Both the position numbers and the translations under genes were made by a program. The notes under the pieces were generated by a model. The model was not told the DNA's origin and made no database searches. It worked only from the letters and a program-made list of their open reading frames with translations. Below, in pieces: positions 1 to 8,781 of a DNA stretch of 16,756 nt. Positions within the stretch are counted from its first letter, which is position 1. Each line of letters starts with the position of its first letter. Source of the stretch: a virus (lineage: Duplodnaviria; Heunggongvirae; Uroviricota; Caudoviricetes); IMG/VR virus record IMGVR_UViG_2703719347_000008. One strand, written 5' to 3'.

Positions 1-1143
1 TCATACTGCTTTTTTACCAACAACGATCCACTCTTTGCCGCGGTCATCATTGTATATGTCAGTCATTTTCATTGTTTTGTGGCCCAATAGTTTCTGAGTG
101 TCTATTCCTTGCTCACGATACAATCGCTCTGAAAGAGACCTCTGTTCATGGAAAGTCGGTGCTGTTCCTTCTTCCCAGGTAAGACCGCTTTTATCCCGTG
201 CTTTCTTGAACGTTGAAGTAAGTGTTTTGGCTGACACTTGGTCACCACGACTAGCCTGTGAGGTGCTATGGCGAAAATGAACAAGATATTTACTCACCAC
301 AGCATCTCTACATTTTGAAATAACATCACTCAGAGTAATATTTAACGCCTCATTTCTGAGAGAAAGGGGAATGGCTAAACGAGTTCCTGTTTTCTCCTGC
401 TCAATATGCAGCATATCATCCCATACATCCGAAAACTTCATATTGCAAATATCCCCGAGGCGTTGCCCTGTTACAATGGCAAGCAACATTCCACATTGCA
501 AATAAGGTTGTTGTTGTTCGGCGGATGTATAAATAGCCTCCCATTCCTCCAGAGATAGCCTTTGTCTGCTTATCTTATTTCGTGGCTGTTTCGTTGCTTG
601 GGCAGGGTTGTATCCCGGAGGAACGTGACCAGCATGTTGAGCCTCTTTAAAAACATCTATTAGTACCATGCGTACAACTTGAGCCATCCTGTTATGACCC
701 TCTGCCTTAACAGCATCTGTTATTTCGGAAATATCAAGTGCTGTTATATCTTTTAGATATTGCATACCACAATGCTCACGAAAAAGACGAATTGGTTTAG
801 CTTTCTGTCGAAAAGAGTTTGGGCGCAGTTCGTTGTGTTTCAATCTTTCCTCCTGCACCAATTCATATTTGTCGAGCCATGAAGAAACTGTAATATCCGT
901 GCGGTTTCCTTTCATGCGAGCCAGACGCTCGTTAATACCAAGGATCTGCCTGGTGCGCTGCTCTGCAATAATCGTATTTGCTTCACTTGCCACCTGCTTT
1001 GCTTCAGCTTCGTCCGTGCCGAGGCTATGAAAACGACCAGAGATAGGGTGTTTGTATTGCCAGTAAACCTTTCCGGTACGTTTATCAAGTTTGCAATATA
1101 GGTTTGGAATAGTGATTTTATGGGTACGCGGTCTAGCTGCCAT
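1..1143 (-). CDS. int: Phage integrase, tyrosine recombinase family
   Basis: 380-aa ORF on minus strand; C-terminal region (LGHKTMKMTDIY) fits the His/Tyr catalytic end of tyrosine recombinases; sits at prophage end directly downstream of an Xis-like gene with 11-nt overlap. Stop codon is at the window edge, so no att site is visible. Confidence 0.9.
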   Translation of the reverse strand: MAARPRTHKITIPNLYCKLDKRTGKVYWQYKHPISGRFHSLGTDEAEAKQVASEANTIIAEQRTRQILGINERLARMKGNRTDITVSSWLDKYELVQEERLKHNELRPNSFRQKAKPIRLFREHCGMQYLKDITALDISEITDAVKAEGHNRMAQVVRMVLIDVFKEAQHAGHVPPGYNPAQATKQPRNKISRQRLSLEEWEAIYTSAEQQQPYLQCGMLLAIVTGQRLGDICNMKFSDVWDDMLHIEQEKTGTRLAIPLSLRNEALNITLSDVISKCRDAVVSKYLVHFRHSTSQASRGDQVSAKTLTSTFKKARDKSGLTWEEGTAPTFHEQRSLSERLYREQGIDTQKLLGHKTMKMTDIYNDDRGKEWIVVGKKAV

Positions 1144-1369
1144 CGCTAATTATCCGTCTCAGTTTTGGGTTAACATTTATTGGAAGTTGAGGTTCAGCAA
1201 CTACACCTATAAAACGAGCCTCTTTGTCAACCATCCAGCGCCGCCCGACTCTCATCGGTGGTGGTGCTATCATCTGGCCTTTAGCATATTTTTTTAATAC
1301 TCGCTCGCTAGGGGCTTCACTACCGAATTCATCTTTTGCCCATTCGAGTAAAGAGACCATACGTGACAT
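1133..1369 (-). CDS. xis: Excisionase (Xis-like DNA-binding protein)
   Basis: Small ORF directly upstream of and overlapping int; LLEWA...APPPMRVGRRW resembles lambda Xis (LQEWNA...FPPPVKDGREY). ATG at 1369 is preceded by GGAGAAGAA; the track's longer 1393 start is a TTG without a Shine-Dalgarno. Confidence 0.7.
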   Translation of the reverse strand: MSRMVSLLEWAKDEFGSEAPSERVLKKYAKGQMIAPPPMRVGRRWMVDKEARFIGVVAEPQLPINVNPKLRRIISDGS

Positions 1370-1432
1370 TTCTTCTCCATATACCGGCTGCAACCGGCTT
1401 AACTTCTACAATTCTTTTCTCCGGGCCAGTCG

Positions 1433-1624
1433 TCACTCGATAGGCTTGATGGTGTCGAGCAGCAGCCGGCGGCGCGTATTTTCTGCAAAATGACGGCATC
1501 CGGTCGCTTTGTGGTAAAACTCGTTTTTGCCAACGACCCACATCCGCTCTGTCTGATGCAGTTTTTTAAGCTTCGGACCGTCTTTGGTGATCACGGTACC
1601 GGTATGGGTTTTTATGATTGTCAT
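1433..1624 (-). CDS. Hypothetical small phage protein (63 aa)
   Basis: ATG at 1624 overlaps the TGA stop of the upstream ParB-like gene in an ATGA arrangement (translational coupling); the track's longer 1645 start is TTG. No recognisable motif. Confidence 0.5.
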   Translation of the reverse strand: MTIIKTHTGTVITKDGPKLKKLHQTERMWVVGKNEFYHKATGCRHFAENTRRRLLLDTIKPIE

Positions 1625-2406
1625 ACGGACTCCCCAAGCACCCAACGGAGTGCGCTTGCATACTCACCCTCGGCAGATTCCAGGGCTTTAGTAATTTCTT
1701 TGCGGGTTTTCAGACGCGGCTTTTCCTCACCGAGAATCTTACGCTGACGCCGGGCTTTTTCATGGCCGGTTGTACCAGCTGTCGCCAGCTCGATTGCTGA
1801 CACTTTGGCACGCTGCTCTTCAGGTGGGAGCGCACCAAGCTGACGCGCCTGGGTAACGGTGACAGTTCCAGATTCCACTGCATCGCGGACAGCCTGGGTG
1901 GCATCCAGCAGCGACAGCGTTGCACGTACTGTCTGAACACTCACGCCAAACATCAGCGATAAATCGTCCTCGTCGTGCCCGCGGTCCAGCGCATCAGCCA
2001 TTTTCTTTGCTCGGCCCAGCGGCGTATCAGCCTGGCGGATTTCGTTAGCACTTACCATCGCCTGCGCCATGCGAACGGCAGAGCCACGTTTAGCGACTGC
2101 CGGAACCAGTAACGGTTCTTTGCCCTCTTTCGACAGACGCTTGTTGGCTTCCAGTGTATGTCGCACACGCTGGCGACCATCAACCACACAAGACAGCCCT
2201 GTCTCCGGGTCTTTCCAGACGATAATCGGCTCAAGAACGCCCTGGTCCATGATGTTCAGCACCATTGCCTCGCTGATAGGCAGGTGGATACGCTCATCGT
2301 AAAGCGGGTGCGTTTTGTCGGTAACCAGGTGCAGGTTTTCAGGTTCGAACGTCAAAACGTTCGTTTTGCCACTCGCGCCATATACCAGCTTTGAGTCTTT
2401 AGCCAT
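1621..2406 (-). CDS. ParB-like nuclease domain protein (ParB/Srx N-terminal domain plus HTH)
   Basis: 261-aa ORF; N-terminal segment IIVWKDPETGLSCVVDGRQRVRH matches the ParB N-terminal arginine-rich box; central region LSLMFGVSVQTVRATL looks like a ParB-type helix-turn-helix. Confidence 0.75.
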   Translation of the reverse strand: MAKDSKLVYGASGKTNVLTFEPENLHLVTDKTHPLYDERIHLPISEAMVLNIMDQGVLEPIIVWKDPETGLSCVVDGRQRVRHTLEANKRLSKEGKEPLLVPAVAKRGSAVRMAQAMVSANEIRQADTPLGRAKKMADALDRGHDEDDLSLMFGVSVQTVRATLSLLDATQAVRDAVESGTVTVTQARQLGALPPEEQRAKVSAIELATAGTTGHEKARRQRKILGEEKPRLKTRKEITKALESAEGEYASALRWVLGESV

Positions 2407-2705
2407 CAGAGAGCCTCCACGTTACGGAAGCTGGTGGGGCAAATTGCTTTCAAATCGCGCATTGCTTCGAGGACATGCAGATTTATGCGCTTCTTGGTAT
2501 ATCGCTCAGTAATACGATCACACTCCTTCGCCCAAGATTTGACCTCTGCGAGAAGGGCGTCACGTTCGGTGCGTGTCTGGCGCAGAGCTACATTCGAAAC
2601 ATCGAGGACGGTAGCCAGTTCCTTGATGATTGCTGCCTGTTCTGGTGGCATAGTTTTGGCTATTTCGTACGCCTGTTTAATCAATTGATTTGCTGTCTTA
2701 GCCAT
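2406..2705 (-). CDS. Hypothetical protein (99 aa), first gene of the leftward early operon
   Basis: ATG at 2705 preceded by GGAGA with 7-nt spacer (track's 2756 start has none); stop overlaps the start of the ParB-like gene (coupled). Predicted helical, no known motif. Confidence 0.6.
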   Translation of the reverse strand: MAKTANQLIKQAYEIAKTMPPEQAAIIKELATVLDVSNVALRQTRTERDALLAEVKSWAKECDRITERYTKKRINLHVLEAMRDLKAICPTSFRNVEAL

Positions 2706-2978
2706 CTTTTGTTCTCCATCTGACGCGCTGCAACGCGTAAATTTAGGGTGCAGCAACCCAACCCATGAAAGTGGGTGAATAGCTGGTTAAAATTTCTTGC
2801 TGATGGGGGACCGCCACTGCAATGGCGGTACGTTAGTTCTCCACACAACTGGAAGCGCACTCCTTCAGTTACAAACCGATCCCCACCGGAAAGAAGGGGA
2901 ATGCGCTTCCATGTTGTGTTCTGTTCATCCTTGTCCGTAAGTTTCGTCATGTGCCGACGAGTAGAAGATAATCATAAA

Positions 2979-3015
2979 TTGCGAGTAACGCAATAGCTAT
3001 GTGCGTTACTCGCAA
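2979..3015 (-). promoter_or_regulatory. Candidate OL-like operator pair with leftward promoter (pL analogue)
   Basis: Two 15-bp sites TTGCGagtaaCGCAA (2979-2993) and gTGCGttactCGCAA (3001-3015), mutually reverse-complementary, matching the motif seen in the cI-cro intergenic region. On the minus strand a -35 TTGCGT (2993-2988) and -10 TATCTT (2970-2965) with 17-bp spacer overlap the first site. Confidence 0.45.
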
Positions 3016-3025
3016 TTTTATGGCG

Positions 3026-3050
3026 AAAAAAAAGGCCTCGAATGAGGCCT
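3026..3050 (-). terminator. Rho-independent terminator of cI
   Basis: 7-bp stem AGGCCTC/GAGGCCT with GAAT loop (3033-3050) followed on the minus strand by a run of 8 U (A-run 3026-3033 on plus), about 18 nt downstream of the cI stop. Confidence 0.7.
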
Positions 3051-3068
3051 AGTTTATGATGATGAATG

Positions 3069-3764
3069 CTATCCATGCCGTTTAAAGGACTGAGACTGGC
3101 TTATTAAAACCTTTCCATAGATATAGAATCTGTGTTCATTCTCTTTAGTTATATTCCATTCTCTATAACGAGGGTTATCAGAGATGACTAGCAGTTGGTC
3201 TGGTATCATCTGCAGGCGTTTAACATAAACTTTTCCATCAAAACCAAAGACGTAAATCCCATCCCCATCGAACTCATTGATAGTTACGTCCACAAAGATT
3301 AGGTCGCCAGGCTCAATCGTTGAGGCCATGCTATCACCGCGAACGTTGATGACCTTTACTCCAGATGGAGTCCTGCCACCAAACATTGCCAATGCCTGAT
3401 CATTGCTGAACTCGATAGCATGAATGACATCTATGACGTCACTACCGTGTATATGTCCTGCCCCGGCGCTTGCGCTCACATCAAGTACCTCGACTCTGTA
3501 TACATCCACATCCTTTACGGGAGATGCATATTTTTTACTGTTTATATGTACAGTAGTATCATTTTCGTCAGAGGTAAATAGGTCAGGTACACTTACGCTT
3601 AAAGCTTGAGCAAGTCGGTTAAGTGTCTGTTCTGAAAACTGCTTTTGTTTACCAGTTTCAAGCCTGGAAATATTGGCAGCATCAACGCCCACAGCTTCTG
3701 CAAGCTCTGCGATTTTAATGTTCTTCGCTAAGCGAAGTTGTCGTATGCGAGATCCTATTTTCAT
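3069..3764 (-). CDS. cI: CI-like repressor (N-terminal HTH plus C-terminal S24/LexA-type autopeptidase domain)
   Basis: 231 aa; N-terminus IRQLRLAKNIKIAELAEAVGVDAANISRLETGK is an XRE-type HTH; C-terminal GDSM (Ser nucleophile) and downstream VKRL Lys are the S24 catalytic dyad pattern; divergent from a Cro-like gene. Confidence 0.9.
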   Translation of the reverse strand: MKIGSRIRQLRLAKNIKIAELAEAVGVDAANISRLETGKQKQFSEQTLNRLAQALSVSVPDLFTSDENDTTVHINSKKYASPVKDVDVYRVEVLDVSASAGAGHIHGSDVIDVIHAIEFSNDQALAMFGGRTPSGVKVINVRGDSMASTIEPGDLIFVDVTINEFDGDGIYVFGFDGKVYVKRLQMIPDQLLVISDNPRYREWNITKENEHRFYIYGKVLISQSQSFKRHG

Positions 3765-3770
3765 TCACTC

Positions 3771-3847
3771 ATTACATGTTGTTTTTGCGTTTCGTGCAAA
3801 GCAACTTGCGCAATTCGCTAGCGTGGAATAGCATGCGTAATACGCAA
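3771..3847. promoter_or_regulatory. Divergent PRM/PR promoter region with three operator-like sites
   Basis: Sites TTGCGtttcgTGCAA (3785-3799), TTGCGcaattCGCTA (3806-3820), aTGCGtaataCGCAA (3833-3847). Rightward promoter: -35 TTGCGC (3806-3811), 17-bp spacer, -10 TAGCAT (3829-3834). Leftward promoter on minus strand: -35 TTGCAC (3799-3794), 17-bp spacer, -10 TGTAAT (3776-3771), ending a few nt before the cI ATG (near-leaderless, as for lambda PRM). Confidence 0.55.
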
Positions 3848-3861
3848 AAATAGGAGGCGTT

Positions 3862-4104
3862 ATGCAATCACCATTAAGAAAATTGCGAAAATCGCATGGC
3901 ATGACCTTATTGCACGTTGCAACCGGGGTACAGGTAGATCCTGCAACGTTGAGCCGCATTGAAAGATGCGAGCAAGTCCCATCTGTCGAACTGGCGGAGA
4001 GATTAGCCAAGTTCTTTAGAGGAGAAATAAGCGAATTACACATTTTGTACCCAAGTCGCTATCAAACAGATGACGTACCAAGTGCAAATAATCGTACTGC
4101 TTAA
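3862..4104 (+). CDS. cro: Cro-like HTH regulator
   Basis: 80-aa ORF divergent from cI; AGGAGG 5 nt upstream of ATG; HTH-like segment HGMTLLHVATGVQVDPATLSRIERCEQ. Confidence 0.75.
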   Translation: MQSPLRKLRKSHGMTLLHVATGVQVDPATLSRIERCEQVPSVELAERLAKFFRGEISELHILYPSRYQTDDVPSANNRTA

Positions 4105-4138
4105 GCGGTTATTCGATAACTACAAAAGGAAAATCAAT

Positions 4139-4600
4139 ATGGTAGAGCCAAACCTCAAAGAAGCCGTCAAAGCGATGTGCAAAGCATATCCAGGTGGGCG
4201 CGAAGCAATGGCTGGCGCACTGGGAATGACCGTGACGCAGTTCAACAACAACCTCTACGAGAAAAACGGCTGTCGATTTTTTGAAGTATCGGAGCTGGAA
4301 GCGATGGAAGACATTTCCAACACGTCACTACTGGCAGACTACTTCGCCCGCCGTCGTGGTGCTTTGCTGGTGGATGTTCCGCACCTGGAAGAGCTGGATC
4401 GCGTGGACTTGTTTAGCCGGGCAATGCGTACCTCTGCCGCCAGGGGACAGGTTGATCAGATTATCGAACAGGCACTTGAAGATGGCGTTATTGAAAGGCA
4501 CGAGGCCGAAGAAATCATGGTGCATCACCGCCGCCATCTGGCAGCTCGGGAAGAAGAGATTGCCGCAATTATCACGTTATTTTCACGCAAAAAGAAGTGA
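4139..4600 (+). CDS. CII-like transcriptional regulator (possibly CP76/YdaT-type)
   Basis: Position immediately after cro; ATG at 4139 preceded by AAAGGA (8-nt spacer), preferred over the track's upstream 4070 start that overlaps cro; N-terminal HTH-like REAMAGALGMTVTQFNNNLY. Family assignment is from memory of domain architecture, not a search. Confidence 0.5.
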   Translation: MVEPNLKEAVKAMCKAYPGGREAMAGALGMTVTQFNNNLYEKNGCRFFEVSELEAMEDISNTSLLADYFARRRGALLVDVPHLEELDRVDLFSRAMRTSAARGQVDQIIEQALEDGVIERHEAEEIMVHHRRHLAAREEEIAAIITLFSRKKK

Positions 4601-8120: not shown

Positions 8121-8699
8121 ATGATTAACCCGTCCGAGGTTGGAAAAGCTGGTGAAATGGTCAGGCTGAAAACGCTGGAGGCCATCTGGATTCAGGGGAA
8201 GCTGCGCATGTGGGGCCGCTGGTCTTACATCGGCGGCGGTAGTGGCGGCAATATGTTTAACCAGTTACTGGCTTCCGGGAAAGTCACTAAAACAGCCATC
8301 AACGAAGCATTACGCCGGATGAAGAAGTCTGGCATCTCGAAGCCTGAGCTTGAGGCGTTTTTTCGTGAAATACTCGCGGGGAAAAACAAAAGCGGCCTGG
8401 CCTTCTGTACAGACGATGAAGGACTGCTGATTGATAAGGTACTGGGGGCAGTCCTTATTACGGGTGGTCACAAAGAGCTGTATCACCTGCTGGTGGAGCA
8501 TTACCGGTTACGGAAGAGCAAACGCCGCATAGCGGAAGAGCTCTATGAAAAGCATCCTGACTGGTGCTTTATGACCTGTAGGAGAAGAGTTGATGCATGG
8601 ATAAGTTTGGCAGAATCGATGCTGTACGCACCAATGTGTGACGCATTCGGCACAAATCGCGACAGATTTTACTTGCAAAGTGAGCCAGAAACTGCTTGA
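8121..8699 (+). CDS. Q: Late-gene antiterminator Q (P22 gp23-like family)
   Basis: ATG at 8121 with GGAG 8 nt upstream (track ORF 7941 is an in-frame upstream extension overlapping DUF968); WGRW...CTDDEGLLID...YHLLVEHY resembles the WGAW...CCDDDAMII...LHDLLVDYY pattern of P22 gp23; sits just upstream of a terminator and the lysis cassette. Confidence 0.6.
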   Translation: MINPSEVGKAGEMVRLKTLEAIWIQGKLRMWGRWSYIGGGSGGNMFNQLLASGKVTKTAINEALRRMKKSGISKPELEAFFREILAGKNKSGLAFCTDDEGLLIDKVLGAVLITGGHKELYHLLVEHYRLRKSKRRIAEELYEKHPDWCFMTCRRRVDAWISLAESMLYAPMCDAFGTNRDRFYLQSEPETA

Positions 8700-8750
8700 A
8701 TTGTGATAGGCTCGGGACGTTAAAGCGAACTGAGCAGCAGAACAAAACAT

Positions 8751-8781
8751 AAACCCGCCAATGAGCGGGTTTTTTTATTTT
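8751..8781. terminator. Bidirectional rho-independent terminator (tR'-like for Q side; also terminates the convergent minus-strand gene)
   Basis: Stem ACCCGC (8753-8758) / GCGGGT (8765-8770) with 6-nt loop, flanked by an A-rich run upstream and TTTTTTATTTT (8771-8781) downstream; lies between the two convergent genes. Confidence 0.65.

Follow-up and report, generated by a model that had tools for sequence, protein, structure and literature searches.

What is the role of a short inverted repeat, TTGCG-N5-CGCAA (N5 being five nucleotides of any kind), that recurs on both sides of a phage repressor gene? The question is raised by a stretch of 16,756 bases from the virus record IMGVR_UViG_2703719347_000008 (hereafter the window), which is a lambdoid prophage and in which copies of this dyad are found between a cI repressor gene and a divergent cro-like gene, and again beyond the far end of cI. 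We find that the dyads are very probably the operators of a lambda-type CI/Cro immunity switch lying on both sides of cI, as judged by comparing the window with its relatives. An earlier note on this DNA had described three sites in the cI-cro intergenic region and two past the cI terminator, and had likened them to the right and left operators (OR and OL) of lambda. All five are where it had placed them, one as an exact copy and four with a single mismatch; the terminator stem (3033-3050) does lie between cI and the distal pair, and the order OL pair, terminator, cI, OR, cro matches a lambda-like layout. The list was nevertheless incomplete, as a sixth dyad is present inside cro (3883-3897). 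The elements on which the argument turns are given below, with the score of each site in a position weight matrix (PWM); pL, PR and PRM stand for the candidate leftward, rightward and repressor promoters.

2979-2993: OL1, the perfect dyad TTGCGAGTAACGCAA, covering the -35 hexamer and spacer of candidate pL; PWM score 19.0
3001-3015: OL2, GTGCGTTACTCGCAA, one mismatch, 22 bp from OL1; PWM score 11.1
3026-3050, minus strand: intrinsic terminator of cI (stem 3033-3050), a GGCCTC/GAGGCC stem with a run of eight T
3069-3764, minus strand: cI repressor gene, 231 amino acids, with HTH_3 and S24 domains, by Pfam and PHROG
3785-3799: site A (OR3-like), TTGCGTTTCGTGCAA, one mismatch, covering the -35 hexamer and spacer of candidate PRM; PWM score 18.0
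3806-3820: site B (OR2-like), TTGCGCAATTCGCTA, one mismatch, its left half being the -35 hexamer of candidate PR; PWM score 13.2
3833-3847: site C (OR1-like), ATGCGTAATACGCAA, one mismatch, at the end of the -10 hexamer and the start of candidate PR; PWM score 21.1, the highest in the window
3862-4104, plus strand: cro-like gene, 80 amino acids, HTH_3 by Pfam PF01381
3883-3897: site D, TTGCGAAAATCGCAT, in cro codons 8-12 and 50 bp from site C; PWM score 16.6

The intergenic region between the divergent cI and cro genes is 97 bp long and contains sites A, B and C, while at the other end of cI only 10 bp separate the terminator from OL2. The centres of the two half-sites of each dyad are 10 bp apart, that is one helical turn, and the sites themselves are spaced at 21 bp (A to B), 22 bp (OL1 to OL2), 27 bp (B to C) and 50 bp (C to D). 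The sole exact match to TTGCG-N5-CGCAA in the window is at 2979-2993. When one mismatch was allowed, six matches were found in the whole window, and all six fell within the 919 bp between 2979 and 3897, compared with an expectation of 0.92 and a maximum of 4 in 200 dinucleotide-preserving shuffles of the window, none of which reached 6. The same clustering was observed when the scan suggested in the earlier note was extended to two complete genomes of relatives: at the same threshold, ST147-VIM1phi7.2 (MK448232, 34.2 kb) has all six of its six matches in the immunity region and SfII (41.5 kb) all three of its three. The motif is not spread genome-wide.

For the comparison with relatives we used nine phage loci and 80 IMG/VR loci obtained by an alignment-based scan, all oriented as the window, which give 53 distinct OR and 76 distinct OL regions with cI identities of 49-100%. 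Homologues of cI are abundant in the Enterobacteriaceae, the identity being 70-72% in ST64B, SfII, mEp460, Stx2a_1447/WGPS2 and phage 1720a-02, 67% in phiNP (Citrobacter), 54% in Cronobacter ENT47670 and 49% in a Yersinia phage; the recognition helix and the dyad together were found in loci from Klebsiella, Escherichia, Salmonella, Shigella, Citrobacter, Kosakonia, Lonsdalea, Cronobacter and Yersinia. Across all 53 OR and 76 OL regions the sequences are collinear, with the sites in register. Reading away from cI, the OR region is made up of the cI ATG, 6 nt, ATTACA, site A in the form TTGCG-N5-(T/A/C)GCAA, AGCAAC, TTGCGCAA... (site B), a TAnnAT that overlaps site C (ATGCG-N5-CGCAA), a Shine-Dalgarno sequence, the cro ATG and site D in the form (T/G/A)TGCG-N5-CGCA(T/C/A). 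The OL region is made up of AAGATAA, 8-9 nt, TTGCG-N5-CGCAA, 6-8 nt, (T/A/G)TGC(G/A)-N5-(C/T)GCAA, about 9 nt, an A run and the terminator, which is in the same place throughout the relatives with a stem of differing sequence.

Site A has no more than one mismatch in all 80 distinct relatives, site C no more than two in all 80 and site D no more than two in 78 of the 80, while OL1 and OL2 both stay within two mismatches in 72 of 76 relatives and keep a spacing of 22-24 bp in 73 of 76. Measured by column over 50 distinct OR regions, conservation is 0.98 in the half-sites, 0.73 in N5 and 0.79 at other positions. Half-sites that are kept around a spacer that is free to change are what would be expected of a dimeric helix-turn-helix (HTH) protein, and not of a structured nucleic acid. 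When the PWM was built from relatives having less than 92% cI identity, the six sites were the top six of the window, the next-best score being 10.0 and the mean best score in shuffles 10.2. A putative operator consensus, (T/A)TGC(G/A)-N5-(C/T)GCA(A/T), can be defined from this comparison. One locus of the set, L039 (IMGVR_UViG_3300011821_000009), has a cI of 75% identity with neither a recognisable cro nor an OL pair; sites A, C and D are still present in it, and a perfect TTGCGCGTTACGCAA lies 913 bp rightward of the cI start.

The proteins encoded on either side of the OR sites are those that a switch of this kind would call for. The cI product has a PF01381 (HTH_3) domain, with E values of 4e-11 to 8e-12, and a PF00717 (S24) domain (1e-20), and it matches PHROGs 4 and 6201 (repressor). 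Its Ala-Gly cleavage site (A100-G101), Ser145 and Lys182 are invariant in 17 aligned members, which indicates an SOS-cleavable repressor. Hardly any change is seen in the predicted recognition helix region of its N-terminal domain (VDAANISRLETGKQ): D28, N31, S33, R34 and E36 are the same in 17 of 17 members down to 50% identity, and the linker varies freely. Among the PDB matches of this domain the best was dh434, a designed variant (1sq8, E value 1e-5), and the 434 repressor (1per) was matched at 1e-4. A scan of genome contigs with the cI protein gave a single, doubtful locus, a 1.4-kb contig labelled Actinomadura rugatobispora (L003, NZ_JBHSON010000232.1) with the N-terminal 109 residues of cI at 81% identity, which is probably a case of assembly contamination.

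Although BLASTP missed it, a local Smith-Waterman comparison with a shuffle control aligned the whole HTH of Cro with the N-terminal domain of CI at a score of 62, against 23 +/- 4.3 in 500 shuffles, and the recognition helices are alike (VDAANISRLE in cI, VDPATLSRIE in Cro). In 434 and P22 the repressor and Cro share their operators, and the Cro of the window, as an HTH_3 paralogue with a similar helix, would be expected to bind the same sites as CI. The specificity of the dyads can be followed in two systems which have the same layout and another DNA-binding domain, namely e14 (YmfK) and HK022 CI. The window CI is 42% identical to HK022 CI over residues 8-231, the identity rising strongly beyond residue 85; there is no match between the N-terminal domains, and the alignment is convincing from about residue 85 only. 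In both e14 and HK022 the dyads are different as well, which argues that the motif follows the DNA-binding domain rather than the host or the rest of the module.

Three candidate promoters are found among the dyads, all with a 17-nt spacer and each with a -35 hexamer that is itself an operator half-site.

Minus strand: candidate pL, -35 TTGCGT at 2993-2988, -10 TATCTT at 2970-2965, start near 2958
Plus strand: candidate PR, -35 TTGCGC at 3806-3811, -10 TAGCAT at 3829-3834, start near 3841
Minus strand: candidate PRM, -35 TTGCAC at 3799-3794, -10 TGTAAT at 3776-3771, start near 3764 (the cI ATG)

We infer these positions from the conservation of the hexamers, with PRM assigned by analogy with lambda. 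The strip AAGATAA (plus strand), corresponding to the -10 of pL, is conserved in most relatives at 8-9 nt from the left edge of OL1, with TAATTT in its place in ST64B; the -10 of PRM, which lies 6 nt ahead of the cI ATG, appears as ATTACA in 50 of the 51 distinct OR regions; and the -10 of PR fits TAnnAT in 50 of 50, being TAACAT, TAATAT or TAAAAT in the relatives. Counted from the pL start, OL1 covers -35 to -21 and OL2 -57 to -43. Counted from the PR start, B covers -35 to -21, C -8 to +7, A -56 to -42 and D +43 to +57, while from the PRM start A covers -35 to -21 and B -56 to -42.

These positions lead to a model in which binding, activation, cooperativity and looping are all steps that we infer. 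A CI dimer would sit on each dyad, with one recognition helix per TTGCG half-site; the conservation of the half-sites, the invariant recognition helix and the 21-22-bp spacing of A-B and OL1-OL2 lend indirect support to such binding and to cooperativity between neighbouring sites. OL1, lying over the -35 and spacer of pL, would bring about repression of that promoter, which would otherwise drive a leader of about 250 nt followed by a 99-aa gene, a ParB-like gene, xis and int. PR would drive cro, cII and the replication genes, and occupation of C and B would turn lytic transcription from PR off. Site B lies just upstream of PRM, where it is placed to contact polymerase, and may stimulate this promoter; site A lies over the PRM -35 and would provide negative autoregulation of cI, C, B and A thus repeating the logic of lambda OR1, OR2 and OR3. 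The message made from PRM would be a leaderless cI mRNA from about 3764, as it is in lambda.

Several points weigh against this reading or narrow it. With up to two mismatches the window contains 14 matches where 11.35 are expected, which is background, and the signal consequently rests on the near-perfect copies. The training sites of the PWM were picked by their resemblance to the motif, which makes the ranking partly circular, and OL2 barely exceeds the best shuffled score (11.1 vs 10.2). At site B the left half, TTGCGC, is invariant (50/50) and the right half is conserved at 0.52 only, such that the full dyad stays within two mismatches in only 32 of 80 relatives and has at least four in 45 of 80; since the right half is poorly conserved, the description of OR as three sites is specific to a clade. 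The promoter hexamers are weak, with 7-8 of 12 positions matched (3/6 per -35 and 4-5/6 per -10), and a consensus scan called none of them. The pairs spaced near two helical turns are A-B (21 bp) and OL1-OL2 (22 bp); the 27 bp between B and C do not make an integral number of helical turns, so cooperativity of the lambda OR1-OR2 style is not to be assumed and the scheme may differ. Finally, a literature search returned no paper describing these operators, with thin coverage of subscription journals, where an older description is possible; among the papers retrieved on regulatory regions of Shiga toxin (Stx) phages, BAA2326, SfII/SfIV, ST64B and e14, none describes this operator.

The sixth dyad, site D, differs from the others in being inside a coding sequence, and its conservation has to be separated from that of the Cro protein. 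We compared 43 distinct cro 5' regions, and every one of them has G as the third base of codon 8, where the residue is L, V or M, and also as the third base of codon 11, where the residue is S, A or E. Other four-fold sites within the first 40 cro codons are 33-70% conserved, and the positions within N5 are free. Invariant synonymous G bases next to residues that vary argue that site D is under selection at the DNA level and not under coding constraint. In the L039 locus, where there is no cro frame, the dyad is kept at the same distance from cI. Site D probably adds repression or cooperativity downstream of PR, and it may be a compact counterpart of the far-right operator of HK022, to judge by analogy. 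A conserved operator inside cro is the only conceptual addition that this system makes to the lambda paradigm.

Two other explanations of the sites themselves have to be considered. The earlier note had allowed that the distal pair might be a hairpin instead, on account of a perfect inverted repeat of 13 bp. The repeat is indeed perfect, and longer than it had stated: the arms at 2976-2992 and 3002-3018 are 100% complementary over 17 nt with 9 nt between them, and in the window allele OL2 is an exact inverted copy of OL1. As DNA this repeat folds at -19.8 kcal/mol (z = -9.3), and a terminator scan flags a small stem on the minus strand (2994-2978), as one might expect if the element were a DNA or RNA hairpin or a cruciform serving as a terminator or as a processing, recombination or replication signal. 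However, the long stem is private to the window allele. In relatives whose cI is 99% identical the N5 of OL2 is TAAAG or TAAAA, the long stem is gone and the folds reach only -9.7 and -11.1 kcal/mol, yet the individual dyads remain; just 2 of the 76 distinct relatives have a central N5 that is perfectly inverted, many others have OL1 and OL2 as direct copies, and the SfII group has them nearly so. The relatives have preserved the half-site pairs and their 22-24-bp spacing and not the complementarity between the sites. The true terminator is the separate GGCCTC hairpin (3033-3050). Moreover, the segment falls beyond the cI terminator and ahead of the inferred pL start, and so is probably little transcribed. 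We therefore consider a hairpin extremely improbable. The other explanation accepts a protein and changes its identity: the sites would be bound mainly by Cro alone, by the CP76-type CII or by a host factor, and the likeness to OR and OL would be one of position only. The HTH of Cro does belong to the same class and its recognition helix is similar, and lambda CII also makes use of TTGC-containing repeats. Even so, relatives that keep the cI recognition helix keep the dyad across nine host genera, while e14 and HK022 have another DNA-binding domain and other dyads in the same places. Inverted dyads with half-sites 10 bp apart fit an HTH dimer, whereas lambda CII recognises direct repeats; sites at OL would be expected for CI and Cro and not for CII; and the motif is absent elsewhere in the two phage genomes scanned. 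This second explanation is very unlikely. A LexA box or the site of another host regulator was also considered and, with no further search made for it, set aside, the motif being unlike the LexA consensus CTGT-N8-ACAG.

With CI operators as the preferred reading, it remains to be asked whether OL and OR act together. Tetramers of CI bound at OL1-OL2 might meet those at OR and close a loop of about 820 bp, and we regard such OL-OR looping as somewhat more likely than not by analogy with known repressors. HK022 CI, lambda CI and phiKO2 CB, all three of the lambdoid repressors tested, loop OL to OR in vivo, the OL-OR distance being about 700 bp in HK022 (Hao et al. 2021, PMC8053113), and looping is plausible here because the C-terminal domain of the window CI is homologous to that of HK022 CI. 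The competing view, that the CI operators are real and that OL and OR work independently with no functional long-range loop, has a substantial chance of being right, although we place it below even. There are only two OL sites, as in 933W, where a loop forms and plays no role in PRM regulation according to Bullwinkle & Koudelka (2011), as cited in PMC4848623; octamer formation, in addition, is not proven by sequence. Set against this view are the homology to a repressor that loops over a similarly short distance and the conservation of an OL-OR distance of about 800 bp, the latter following from the fact that cI alone lies between OL and OR.

The window allele of OL deserves a closer look, as its perfect palindrome is the exception. 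In relatives the OL2 half-sites are kept and N5 changes (TAAAG, TAAAA, CAAAA and others). The window allele has four differences from its nearest relatives within a 17-nt arm, every one of which adds complementarity to the OL1 arm, and the DNA around that arm differs by about 1.5% from the same relatives. The 17-bp palindrome is a private derived allele, which looks like the outcome of one templated step, either a short conversion or the correction of a quasi-palindrome. In 13 distinct sequences with a cI identity of at least 98.5%, the segment 2987-3035 is hypervariable, with a diversity of 0.108 (2987-3011) and 0.068 (3012-3035) compared with 0.00-0.03 in cI and cro; three or four alleles are found at positions 2997, 3000, 3010, 3020 and 3021, and the OL half-sites are fixed. 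One could combine these elements in a joint reading with six operators arranged as four plus two, where D would be a true CI operator (forming alternative loops with the OL pair or acting as a roadblock, with an anti-virulence role like that of the far-right operator of HK022, though within coding sequence and kept by selection at synonymous positions) and the OL quasi-palindrome would make the OL2 segment a mutational hot spot, at least 10-fold more diverse than cI among near-identical prophages, that could tune or diversify immunity. Taken as a whole this combination is speculative and on balance unlikely.

How does this arrangement compare with switches that have been characterised? With lambda it shares divergent cI and cro genes with several dyads between them, a second cluster past cI over a leftward promoter, the order of OR1-, OR2- and OR3-like sites, a probable leaderless cI mRNA and a self-cleaving S24 repressor. 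It differs from lambda in its DNA-binding domain, which is HTH_3 (the class of 434, P22 c2 and Cro/C1) and not the lambda CI fold, and in its operator, a 15-bp TTGCG-N5-CGCAA whereas that of lambda is 17 bp and TATCACCGCCAGTGGTA-like. There are two OL sites instead of three, and an extra site inside cro. OL adjoins the cI terminator with no rexAB, which gives an OL-OR distance of about 0.8 kb versus 2.3 kb; an N gene is not apparent, the 250 nt of the pL leader are structured, and cII is of the 186 CP76 type.

HK022 CI is by sequence the closest repressor to have been studied experimentally, the 42% identity being mostly in the C-terminal oligomerisation and cleavage domain, and the two systems also have in common a short OL-OR distance (about 700 vs about 820 bp) and an extra operator downstream of OR. 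In HK022 a CI operator about 300 bp downstream of OR contributes to immunity (Carlson & Little 1993, as reported in PMC8053113); in the window the extra operator is 50 bp from the OR1-like site and within cro. The N-terminal DNA-binding domain of HK022 CI is unrelated, and the HK022 intergenic DNA, read from the sequence, has GTTCA/TGAAC-type repeats, with no TTGCG-N5-CGCAA found in it. HK022 also has Nun and put, and this phage has neither. Membership of the HK022 immunity group was rejected, since neither the N-terminal domains nor the operators match.

The relation to 434 is of another sort, as the HTH class is the same and both have a paralogous repressor and Cro with similar helices, which share operators in 434 and are expected to do so in the window, but the similarity is weak, the 434 operator is a 14-bp ACAA-N6-TTGT and the cleavage domain of the window CI is nearer to that of HK022 CI. 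The 434 immunity group was likewise rejected, the operators here being TTGCG-N5-CGCAA and the 434 repressor matching in the HTH only, at an E value of about 1e-4. In 933W there are also two OL and three OR sites in a lambdoid switch with an S24 repressor, whose specificity and operators are nevertheless unrelated, and the published operators of Stx phages (933W, BAA2326, PST1 and PST3) do not resemble TTGCG-N5-CGCAA. Finally, the cryptic E. coli K-12 prophage e14 (ymfK/ymfT) has the same succession of a dyad pair, a terminator, an S24 repressor, intergenic dyads and cro-like and ymfL-like genes, and differs in its DNA-binding domain and in its dyads of GGTAC/GTACC type, which imply a different immunity specificity. 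Judged by eye, the apparent e14 operators are the GGTAC/GTACC-type dyads, a pair by the ymfK terminator and others between ymfK and ymfT, at 2690-2735 and 3440-3525 of locus L092. YmfK was not retained as a member of the family, only its C-terminal domain being similar (35% over 66 aa). As the operators of lambda, 434, HK022, e14, 933W, BAA2326, PST1 and PST3 all differ from those described here, the CI/operator system of the window appears to be outside all characterised immunity groups.

The other genes annotated to the left and right of the switch are as follows.

1-1143, minus strand: integrase
about 1136-1393, minus strand: excisionase (xis), by PHROG
1621-2406, minus strand: ParB-like gene, by Pfam and PHROG
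start at 2705, minus strand: 99-aa gene, the first of the left operon, by PHROG alignment
4139-4600, plus strand: cII of the 186 CP76 type, by Pfam and PHROG

The start of the first gene of the left operon is probably the ATG at 2705, which has GGAGAA upstream, and not the TTG at 2756, because it is at residue 18 of the longer open reading frame (ORF) that the alignment to the PHROG 15091 profile begins. An 89-aa ORF at 2681-2950 was considered as the first pL gene and rejected, as it has no Pfam or PHROG match and is not conserved: it is broken by a 265-bp insertion in KY271401, and the homology of MK448232 stops inside it. Both events point to the same place, near 2844 of the window, where there is a mosaic junction in the pL leader; the KY271401 insertion (L001 3245-3510) is located there and is flanked by the repeat CACAAC, and the homology of MK448232 stops at that same point.

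The inferred pL leader itself (2706-2958, minus strand) is an untranslated segment of about 250 nt that is strongly structured (-66 kcal/mol, z = -2.0), with a hairpin at about 2810-2829 and a long stem at about 2844-2918 built on the inverted repeat 2850-2863 / 2898-2911. The leader may serve as an attenuator or as an element of the put/nut kind, and no Rfam family matches it; an Rfam scan of the whole window (E <= 1) likewise gave no match in or near the immunity region. In many clades (L004, L006, L034-L037 and L040-L055) a conserved element GCGTCCTGCCTGTT(C/T)G follows the pL -10 at a distance of about 20-40 nt. E. coli K-12 e14, whose repressor specificity is another, has it too (L092 2655-2675), and the pL leader of the window itself lacks it. 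Elsewhere in the window, the Rfam scan gave a weak match to the Trp leader at 8695-8778 (24.4 bits, E 0.36, under the gathering score), which is in practice a strong intrinsic terminator on the plus strand, CCCGC...GCGGG followed by seven T, between converging genes.

As to the nearest relatives of the prophage, both Klebsiella phage 1 LV-2017 and the Kp48xx prophages are 98.4% identical to the window over positions 2600-4200, and ST147-VIM1phi7.2 is 98.5% identical to it from 2844 rightward. The immunity region is 98-99% identical in many Klebsiella pneumoniae prophages, and a copy of positions 2940-3900 that is 100% identical is present in the chromosome of E. coli 5CRE51 (NZ_CP021175.1, 4357518-4358478). 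The sharing of this region between E. coli 5CRE51 and Klebsiella points to a recent transfer of the prophage between genera.

The repressor family to which this CI belongs is a very common one. About 1,060 of 5,426 complete E. coli genomes carry the module (at least 80% of the query aligned, at about 70% identity), and the family also includes the repressors of ST64B, SfII, mEp460, some Stx2a-converting phages, Citrobacter phiNP and many Klebsiella prophages. Its switch is an ordinary one of the lambda style, the only unusual points being the conserved operator in cro and the hypervariable quasi-palindromic OL2 segment. The operator consensus, together with the promoter map, would make it possible to predict hetero-immunity and superinfection exclusion among these prophages, to design reporter and inducible constructs, and to interpret induction in clinically relevant lysogens of Klebsiella and of Shiga toxin-producing E. 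coli.

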